Made by a program: the position numbers and the translations under genes. Positions 463-1,466 of a stretch of 44,051 bases of DNA are shown in pieces (position 1 is the first letter of the stretch; every line of letters begins with the position of its first letter). The stretch comes from Escherichia phage Rao1: sequence record PQ221054; one strand, given 5' to 3'. The notes below the pieces were generated by a model. That model was not told the origin of the DNA, made no database searches, and saw only the letters and a program-made list of their open reading frames with translations.

Positions 463-942
463 ATGAATGAGAAAGCAACATTGGGTCAAGTGATTCGCGA
501 GATGGTAAAACAGGCTCTAAAATCTGAAGATAAGCAATTCAGCGTTTCACTAAGGAAAATTGAAAGCATTATTGGCAGTGAAGATGGTTCCATTAAGAAG
601 CTTAAGAGCTCATACATCTACAACACAACAGCTCGCATGCCTGAGTTGAGAGACGCAGGTCTGAAGGCGACTCACTACTATGATGAAGATAGCGGCAAAA
701 GCCAATTCGGCGTGACAGAGCTATCAGATGGCAAGAGGCTGGTTATCAAACTGATCCCTGGAACTGCCAACATTGGTATCAGGAAGAAGACCAATGACGC
801 AATCAAGGTGGAGGCAATAACTGAATTCAAGGCTAAGATATCGAAAGTCATGCCAGACCTATCGGAGTATGAAGGTGAAGCGCTCGCAGCAGCAATGAAA
901 GCAATTAAAGATTATCGTTTGATTATTGAGGAGATTAAATAA
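463..942 (+). CDS. Hypothetical protein (about 159 aa)
   Basis: ORF-track frame 454..942 begins at GTG; ATG at 463 has GGAG about 9 nt upstream. No recognisable motif. Confidence 0.5.
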   Translation: MNEKATLGQVIREMVKQALKSEDKQFSVSLRKIESIIGSEDGSIKKLKSSYIYNTTARMPELRDAGLKATHYYDEDSGKSQFGVTELSDGKRLVIKLIPGTANIGIRKKTNDAIKVEAITEFKAKISKVMPDLSEYEGEALAAAMKAIKDYRLIIEEIK

Positions 943-1466
943 TGTTTAACTTTAACGATGACAAACTAACAGCATAGCAGGTAATGAATATCGCCAGGCA
1001 AGATGGACTTTCGCCAGTCAGAATCGTAATAAATGCAAATGGGTATCGTCAGTCAACGCCATTCTGGGGTTAGATTGATACGTCAGATGTGTACTCAGGT
1101 GATGAGCTTGGTGTGCTAATTAAAATCATCAGGAAGATGGGAGTTAACGGGAAAGGAGTGGTTGGTGTCAGGTCTGTATATGAAGGAGCTCGAAAGGTTA
1201 AGCCTTTTGTTGGGCGTAATGGAGTGATGTTGCTCATCAAGGACAAGCTAATCCCAGAGCTCGACAAGATGAATGTTACATGTCTAATTGGCGATAAGGT
1301 TTATGTTCACCCCGCAATACTCAATGAGTGTTGGGAGCCTAACTTCAAGGTCTACGAAGGTAAGCATCCTAGTAGACTACCATACCACTTGCGGTACAGC
1401 GAGGAAGAGGTTGAGGCGGCGATGGAGTTTTATCGGGAAGCTAAATTACTCCTGAATGGACAATAG
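942..1466 (+). pseudogene. Decayed paralog of the 527-aa protein at 40851..42434: N-terminal piece with two in-frame TAG stops joined in frame to a C-terminal piece
   Basis: Translation from 942 gives MFNFNDDKLTA*QVMNIARQDGLSPVRIVINANGYRQSTPFWG*, matching the N-terminus MFDFNEDKLSVEQVMAIAATDNLPPLRVAINANGYRQS of the 527-aa protein. ORF 1089..1466 (NGKGVVGVRSVYEGARKVKPF...TCLIGDKVYVHP) matches its C-terminus (NGKGVVGVRSLYEAARKVKPF...TCLIGDKIYINP). Same frame throughout; about 400 codons missing. Confidence 0.65.

Follow-up and report, generated by a model that had tools for sequence, protein, structure and literature searches.

A probable amber-inactivated pseudogene of the PHROG 7327 helicase-ends family in the T1-like Escherichia phage Rao1

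The 44,051-nucleotide (nt) stretch of Escherichia phage Rao1 DNA (PQ221054), analyzed here as a whole and referred to as the window, contains at positions 942–1466 a reading frame that is broken by two in-frame amber (TAG) codons and that resembles both ends of a 527-amino acid (aa) helicase encoded in the same genome. We call this frame the mini gene. Our analysis indicates that it is probably a very young, amber-inactivated pseudogene of a conserved helicase-ends family, PHROG 7327, in which an ancient loss of the ATPase core was followed in this lineage by two successive stops. An earlier interpretation, made from the letters alone and referred to as the sequence-only reading, had left it open whether the locus is a pseudogene or a gene of which only the C-terminal domain is still expressed. 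Given that intact orthologs are under purifying selection and that the lesions were confirmed independently, the term pseudogene describes 942–1466 best. As judged from its reading frame, most likely no full-length protein is made from this locus.

The translation of the mini gene begins with MFNFNDDKLTA, continues behind the first amber as QVMNIARQDGLSPVRIVINANGYRQSTPFWG and behind the second as IDTSDVYSGDELGV, and ends in LLLNGQ ahead of a terminal stop that is itself a TAG (1464–1466). When it was aligned with the 527-aa protein using BLASTP, two matches were obtained: residues 1–45 of the mini protein corresponded to helicase residues 1–45 (49% identity, E 7e-18) and residues 51–127 to helicase residues 448–526 (59% identity, E 3e-28), and the last 47 codons (128–174) had no helicase counterpart. 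The old paralogy with the gene on the opposite strand and the N-terminal match of about 45 residues, both claimed in the sequence-only reading, were thus upheld by the pairwise alignment; the C-terminal match claimed alongside them is real, its length being about 77 residues and not about 60. The two internal TAGs were likewise seen where they had been placed, at codon 12, where the helicase as well as the orthologs have Glu, and at codon 44 (Table 1). Two details needed correction. The start codon at 1089 is GTG rather than ATG, and the two genes, described as about 40 kb apart, are divergent neighbors separated by about 2.56 kb on the circular map, with pac and the intergenic control region between them; the apparent 40-kb separation is due to the point at which the genome was linearized. 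The DNA of this phage gave no support for recent gene conversion involving the two genes, whose best shared repeat is 39 nt long at 79%.

The larger paralog matched Pfam PF13148 (DUF3987) over residues 81–432 (E 1.4e-40) and PHROG 2373, annotated as 'DNA helicase'. Its AlphaFold model had a predicted local distance difference test (pLDDT) score of 87, and the top Foldseek matches of this model were MCM2-7 and archaeal MCM subunits. The assignment agrees with the work of Kazlauskas et al. (2016; PMC4889955), in which the winged helix-turn-helix (wHTH) of DUF3987 helicases was described. The model of the mini protein was of low confidence (pLDDT 57) and was used for topology only; it displayed three short helices at residues 11–42, the same as at the helicase N-terminus, and at residues 54–122 the H-E-H-H-E-E topology of a winged helix, as in residues 451–521 of the helicase model. 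Foldseek matches of the mini protein were all non-significant and consisted of winged-helix domains, the best of which was an MCM4 chain (E 0.034). Neither the intact nor the residual mini protein had any match in Pfam, including the PF13148 ATPase core, or in NCBIfam, and a sequence search of solved structures returned no match for the mini protein or the helicase. Since the ATPase core is missing, the mini protein cannot be a helicase.

The short form proved to be the native architecture of a widespread family. The intact ortholog of phage PCEc3 (residues 1–174) matched the PHROG 7327 profile from position 1 to position 179 of 179 (E 3.6e-75), and the residual open reading frame (ORF) of 125 codons in the window matched positions 56–179 (E 7.3e-48). 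Among 5.8 billion proteins searched, 260 relatives were found; among the 120 best-matching clusters, about 115 fell into the range of 172–177 aa, and the gene was present at a coverage of at least 80% in 106–108 GenBank phage records. Intact orthologs were located at the same position in PCEc3, TR1, IME253, AugustePiccard, BEK2, BEK6, SU57, RobRod40 and ESCO41, and in all relatives fetched the mini gene lay directly 3' of the DUF7174 gene, on the same strand and with a stop/start overlap. Pairwise ratios of nonsynonymous to synonymous substitution rates (dN/dS) among orthologs were 0.12–0.33 in all informative pairs, stop-bearing copies included, which indicates that the family is under purifying selection; that the ratio is low even in the stop-bearing copies implies that the stops are young. 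The sequence-only reading had attributed the absence of about 400 in-frame codons to decay of this copy. Uninterrupted members of about 174 aa number in the hundreds, and this, together with the purifying selection, argues that the loss of the middle is not decay here. A full-length second helicase, proposed as something to look for in related phages, was not present at the mini-gene locus in any relative.

Within the family, identity of the mini proteins to the helicases ranged from 40 to 71% in the winged helix and from 58 to 79% in the N-terminal segment. The helicase termini are nearly invariant among phages, and the mini proteins diverge much faster. Residues M1, F2 and L9 of the N-terminal segment are invariant in the family, with F4, K8 and T10 nearly so. 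In the interpretation that we favor, PHROG 7327 arose long ago from a phage MCM-like DUF3987 helicase through loss of the ATPase core, keeping the N-terminal three-helix segment and the C-terminal winged helix and gaining the 47-residue tail. The intact protein might then act as a free-standing mimic of the helicase docking ends, which would compete for, or modulate, the contacts of these ends with DNA or with a partner. The literature on DUF7174 and on escape or nonsense mutations in T1-like phages yielded nothing on the mini gene. A divergent mini protein with a completely different tail was observed at positions 1046–1585 of L013 (IMG/VR contig 2974508497, 47.6 kb); its winged helix is about 70% identical to those of helicases, as opposed to 40–63% in other mini proteins, and this may reflect gene conversion with the helicase gene or a separate origin.

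The order of the two lesions could be read from the closest relatives. Codon 12 is GAG in PCEc3, TR1 and 12210I and TAG in TR2, TR3, CY1 and the window, and codon 44 is TCG in TR2, TR3, CY1 and PCEc3 and TAG only in the window and in five Logan runs. As the codon-12 TAG is common to the clade and the codon-44 TAG is private, amber 12 came before amber 44; the path was thus GAG>TAG in the TR2/TR3/CY1 clade and then TCG>TAG in the present lineage only. Both stops are genuine. That they are sequencing or assembly errors in an ORF that is really intact has in its favor only the prior that single-base errors happen, and it deserves practically no credence: the codon-12 TAG is found in three independently deposited genomes, and the double-amber sequence is 100% identical in SRR31643516, SRR31643537, SRR31643531, SRR17509932 and SRR25884694, five runs that span at least three accession series. 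Over positions 2–3514 the window differs from TR2 by six substitutions, the codon-44 nonsense change being one of them. The clade copies have changed since amber 12 by one nonsense, one synonymous and one Trp131>Leu substitution, the last of these in CY1 and at a family-invariant residue. These three later changes, few as they are, may point to relaxed constraint after the first amber. The fact that both stops are amber had been called a curiosity. In the reconstructed ancestor, however, 1566 substitutions are possible, 73 of them create a stop, and in 34 of these 73 (47%) the stop is TAG, so that two ambers fit chance and would be expected about one time in five.

Two explanations in which TAG is read through were weighed. 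Under genetic code 15, TAG would be read as Gln and the gene would be intact with 187 aa; a database entry, P0048, is this very locus with Q at all three TAGs, derived from four short Logan contigs (L028–L031). We give this explanation hardly any weight. TAG terminates about 10 of the 71 ORFs, the mini gene and the small-terminase gene among them, and no other real gene carries an internal TAG. In the orthologs, the same terminal TAG closes the frame at about 174 aa. Codon 44 is TCG in the closest relatives, codon 12 is GAG in more distant orthologs, and on a 37-kb contig the mini gene was predicted under the standard code. P0048 is a gene-caller artefact on short contigs. A suppressor tRNA or another form of TAG recoding in the phage was also considered and rejected, since TAG is an ordinary stop and the sole tRNA, at 3118–3193, is Arg-CCT, with none carrying a CUA anticodon.

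Alternatively, the ambers could have been tolerated because the lineage circulates on amber-suppressing laboratory strains (supE44/glnV44, for example DH5alpha), in which suppression would insert Gln at positions 12 and 44 and a reduced amount of full-length protein would be made. The host range of TR2 includes both DH5alpha and BL21(DE3) (PMC12628846), so partial suppression may occur in some hosts. T1-like phages are described as notorious laboratory and fermenter contaminants (PMC13164509). Ambers also recur in the family at codon 6 (L073) and at codon 141 (DTL and the P0068 group). Yet the excess of amber over the other stops is what chance predicts, given the share of TAG among one-step nonsense targets, and ochre and opal truncations occur in the family too (TAA in CEB_EC3a, TGA in 12210I). 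BL21(DE3), a strain commonly described as free of amber suppressors, served for the isolation and propagation of both TR1 and TR2. On this strain TR2, a carrier of amber 12, reached 3.5e9 plaque-forming units (PFU)/mL (PMC12628846). Good growth of an amber-12 phage on a non-suppressing host indicates that the full-length protein is dispensable there, and we regard tolerance through suppressor hosts as quite improbable.

Truncation of the mini gene is not confined to this clade. At least seven independent nonsense events were found across the relatives: TAG at codon 6 in L073, at codon 12 in the clade of TR2, TR3, CY1 and the window, at codon 44 in this genome, and at codon 141 in DTL and the P0068 group (at least 24 contigs); TAA at codon 37 in CEB_EC3a; TGA at about codon 141 in 43 Veterinaerplatzvirus isolates; and a Tyr codon changed to a stop at about codon 151 in L052. 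The mini gene was disrupted in 16 of 32 loci, and the flanking genes were never disrupted in the same locus set (DUF7174 in 0 of 32, the next two ORFs in 0 of 15 and 0 of 24). In six further isolates the mini gene was intact. Repeated truncation with untouched neighbors is a pattern that often marks host-dependent costs or immune triggers. A frameshift was also observed in a metagenomic copy, L033.

Several observations weigh against a simple pseudogene. All of the nonsense events lie in codons 6–44 or 140–151 and none in the winged-helix core; codons 50–130 hold 35–42% of the nonsense targets, and complete sparing would have a chance of about 0.03–0.05, as judged post hoc. This hints that the core may still matter, and it is the main reason for keeping two other explanations under consideration. 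One of them holds that the gene is truncated yet functional: ribosomes that had terminated at the ambers would begin anew at ATG 984 and next at GTG 1089 (or ATG 1137), and a winged-helix-plus-tail protein would keep part of the function, the mutations having remodeled the gene instead of killing it. From the arrangement of stops and starts, termination–reinitiation could indeed yield some of this protein, as ATG 984 lies 7 nt after the first TAG and GTG 1089 lies 16 nt after the second. The 125-codon frame has also remained intact, with its match to PHROG 7327, and the depositors of TR2, TR3 and CY1 annotate a 160-aa product from ATG 984. However, the only initiation codon with a recognizable Shine-Dalgarno sequence is ATG 942, which is preceded by GAGGAG; none was found at a workable distance from ATG 984, GTG 1089 or ATG 1137, and at the last of these an AGGAAG abuts too closely. 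Two consecutive reinitiations would result in a very low yield, the product would be without the most conserved N-terminal motif, the replacement of the invariant Trp131 behind the amber in CY1 suggests that constraint on the remaining frame has eased, and the sparing of the core was recognized only after the fact. The expression of a 125-aa C-terminal product from 1089, which the sequence-only reading had offered as its second option, is accordingly left with the sparing of the core on its side and a GTG start that lacks a Shine-Dalgarno sequence against it, and we consider a functional truncated product unlikely.

The other explanation is that loss itself has been selected. Here, the full-length helicase-ends mimic would be repeatedly selected against on some hosts, for instance through recognition by a host defence or a slowing of replication. 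By single nonsense changes, lineages would shed the N-terminal peptide or the tail and keep the winged-helix core and the pac-like DNA, and the second amber would be an adaptive 'second hit' that closed a leak left by reinitiation at Met15. The second stop could have been selected rather than have drifted: if neutral, a nonsense change among only six differences from TR2 over 3.5 kb has a chance of about 0.04–0.05. Against the view of the intact gene adopted here, moreover, the proposed mimic function draws solely on homology and on the low-confidence model. We hold selected loss to be a doubtful account of the locus. The young pseudogene is the interpretation that we favor, and under it lytic growth on laboratory and industrial E. 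coli does not require the mini gene.

The DNA of the dead mini gene has probably been retained for what its 3' end contains. Among 15 orthologs, third-codon-position identity was 0.83–0.92 at nt 1353–1400 as against 0.4–0.55 in the gene body, and an Rfam search over the whole window returned only the tRNA, so that no known RNA family accounts for this stretch. Within it lies the second copy (copy B) of GACTACCATAC, a sequence that occurs exactly twice in the genome, in direct orientation, bracketing the cassette of the DUF7174 gene and the mini gene; extended similarity between the copies covers positions 1–20 and 1372–1391. Two direct copies, 1.37–1.47 kb apart, were present in every relative with enough flank; L056, which has no mini ORF, carries both copies too, at a spacing of about 1.04 kb. 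The pac site of TR1 has been mapped by PhageTerm to record position 3,615 (PMC10450929). This position is 3 nt from copy A, and position 1 of the window is the homologous base. The tail DNA of the mini gene (approximately its last 100 nt, encoding SRLPYHLR.SEEEVE..FYRKAK) and the palindrome downstream of it persist without the mini ORF in the metagenomic contigs L056 (2654–2746), L058 (548–640) and L059 (226–318), in two of which a stop is found at a Tyr codon. The inactivated gene would thus be kept because its 3' end holds the second pac-adjacent core copy, followed by a promoter-like motif. In the light of this conservation, we infer that the mini-gene 3' end doubles as a cis-acting DNA element.

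The palindrome that overlaps the mini-gene stop belongs to a repeat family, and a promoter-like match follows at 1477–1506. The motif, AATAGCAC-GAATT-GCTAAA (TAGCA...TGCTA), was observed at no fewer than nine intergenic sites in both orientations, at 1462–1480, 28743, 35489 and 39039 on the plus strand and at 26284, 27076, 36561, 43085 and 43895 on the minus strand, with variants at 4027, 13477, 32990 and 37821. It is usually followed about 20 nt on by a TATAAT-like hexamer and marks mosaic boundaries in BLAST matches. From these features it looks like a phage-specific promoter/operator family.

The window itself represents a T1-like coliphage (Drexlerviridae, Braunvirinae) whose genome is complete and circularly permuted and which is close to the Christensenvirus phages CY1 and TR2. 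In independent assemblies (L027, L001, L004 and L005), position 44051 runs directly into positions 1–2, as seen in a Logan contig of 37 kb and in the records of TR2, TR3 and CY1; this establishes that the window is complete. The nearest records were CY1_Cui-2023 (95.8% identity over the matched parts), TR2, TR3 and TR1. The window is identical to none of these four phages, all of which came from Chinese E. coli fermentation broths. Its early region (2–3514) is 99.7–99.8% identical to TR2, TR3 and CY1, and the structural region (3515–25000) about 91–96%, a difference which suggests that the early module with the amber allele was recently exchanged among fermenter phages. The DUF7174 gene stop overlaps the mini-gene start in a TAATG junction (940–944). 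On the other side of the map, the helicase gene ends in TGA TAG ATG (40845–40856, minus strand), and the 111-aa gene downstream of it (40512..40847) opens two codons further on without a change of frame, although there is no read-through relationship; the 111-aa protein had no similarity to the helicase, and homology of the mini-protein tail to this ORF was rejected (E 1.8). Microsatellites of the (AT)n / (ATT)n type were observed in two intergenic regions, 127–201 and 27214–27264, the former being flanked on its two sides by the pac-adjacent core and the DUF7174 gene.

Table 1. Features of the mini-gene locus and its helicase paralog, in window positions
Feature	Position	Strand	Basis
PHROG 7327 'mini-helicase-ends' ortholog (mini gene), 174 codons plus stop, two internal ambers	942..1466	+	Translation, PHROG match, synteny
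First amber, codon 12, GAG (Glu)>TAG	975..977	+	DNA alignments
Second amber, codon 44, TCG (Ser)>TAG	1071..1073	+	DNA alignments, Logan runs
N-terminal segment, codons 1–43, homolog of helicase N-terminus	942..1070	+	BLASTP; three short predicted helices
Winged-helix domain, codons 51–127, homolog of helicase C-terminal wHTH	1092..1322	+	BLASTP, model topology
Residual open frame, 125 codons, GTG start; what gene callers annotate	1089..1466	+	ORF calls
Stretch conserved at the DNA level in the tail-coding part, contains copy B	1353..1400	+	Third-position identity
GACTACCATAC copy A, 3 nt from window position 1	4..14	+	Repeat search
GACTACCATAC copy B	1375–1385	+	Repeat search
Palindromic promoter/operator-like motif AATAGCACGAATTGCTAAA, overlaps mini-gene stop	1462..1480	+	Repeat family
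DUF7174 gene, upstream neighbor	463..942	+	Pfam PF23796, E 6.7e-48
DUF3987 / MCM-like replicative helicase, 527 aa, full-length paralog	40851..42434	-	Pfam, PHROG, model

As a pseudogene, the mini gene is ordinary, namely an accessory gene lost to nonsense mutations in a coliphage that contaminates fermenters; mild interest attaches to the architecture of the family, to the repeated truncation of its members and to the pac-like repeat that the gene contains. Public databases hold 125-aa, 160-aa and spurious 187-aa (TAG=Gln) 'proteins' from this locus. It therefore serves as an annotation warning, as gene callers output three different 'proteins' from one locus.

When compared with classical phage amber alleles and young unitary pseudogenes, the mini gene likewise has single-base nonsense changes, a well-kept frame, intact close relatives and dispensability on the isolation host. 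It differs from the classical amber alleles in carrying two successive ambers and in having been truncated independently in at least six other lineages, in which its neighbors never were. With regard to the repeat at its 3' end, multi-part pac regions are a feature of headful phages, as exemplified by pacL/pacC/pacR of SPP1 and the pac hexamer repeats of P1. As in these systems, a short conserved sequence at a mapped pac cut, here that of TR1, is repeated in direct orientation. Unlike in SPP1 and P1, the second GACTACCATAC copy is about 1.37 kb away inside a coding region, and the arrangement is known here from sequence alone; the strict conservation of this second pac-adjacent copy at the mini-gene 3' end matters in that the two copies bracket a two-gene cassette.

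To its own family, PHROG 7327, this copy corresponds in position, DUF7174 overlap, length and frame; the family is uninterrupted over about 174 codons, whereas this copy has ambers at codons 12 and 44 and cannot yield the full-length family product on a host without suppression. With the DUF3987/MCM-like helicase, the mini gene shares the first approximately 45 and the last approximately 80 residues, the latter being the wHTH, but it is devoid of the ATPase core (helicase residues ~46–447) and adds a tail of 47 residues. PHROG 7327, a family of unknown function with proteins of about 175 aa in T1-like Drexlerviridae, can be described as a helicase paralog with both ends and no middle, which provides a concrete hypothesis for its function. 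Phage phiX174 A*, T7 gp4B relative to gp4A, and the Tn5 inhibitor are short products that keep interaction or DNA-binding parts and modulate a larger enzyme. As in these cases, a smaller protein here shares modules with a larger enzyme of the same genome. The three known products modulate their enzymes; for the mini protein, such a role is a proposal. They arise, moreover, by internal initiation within the same gene, whereas the mini gene is a separate, diverged gene in which both ends of the helicase have been kept.

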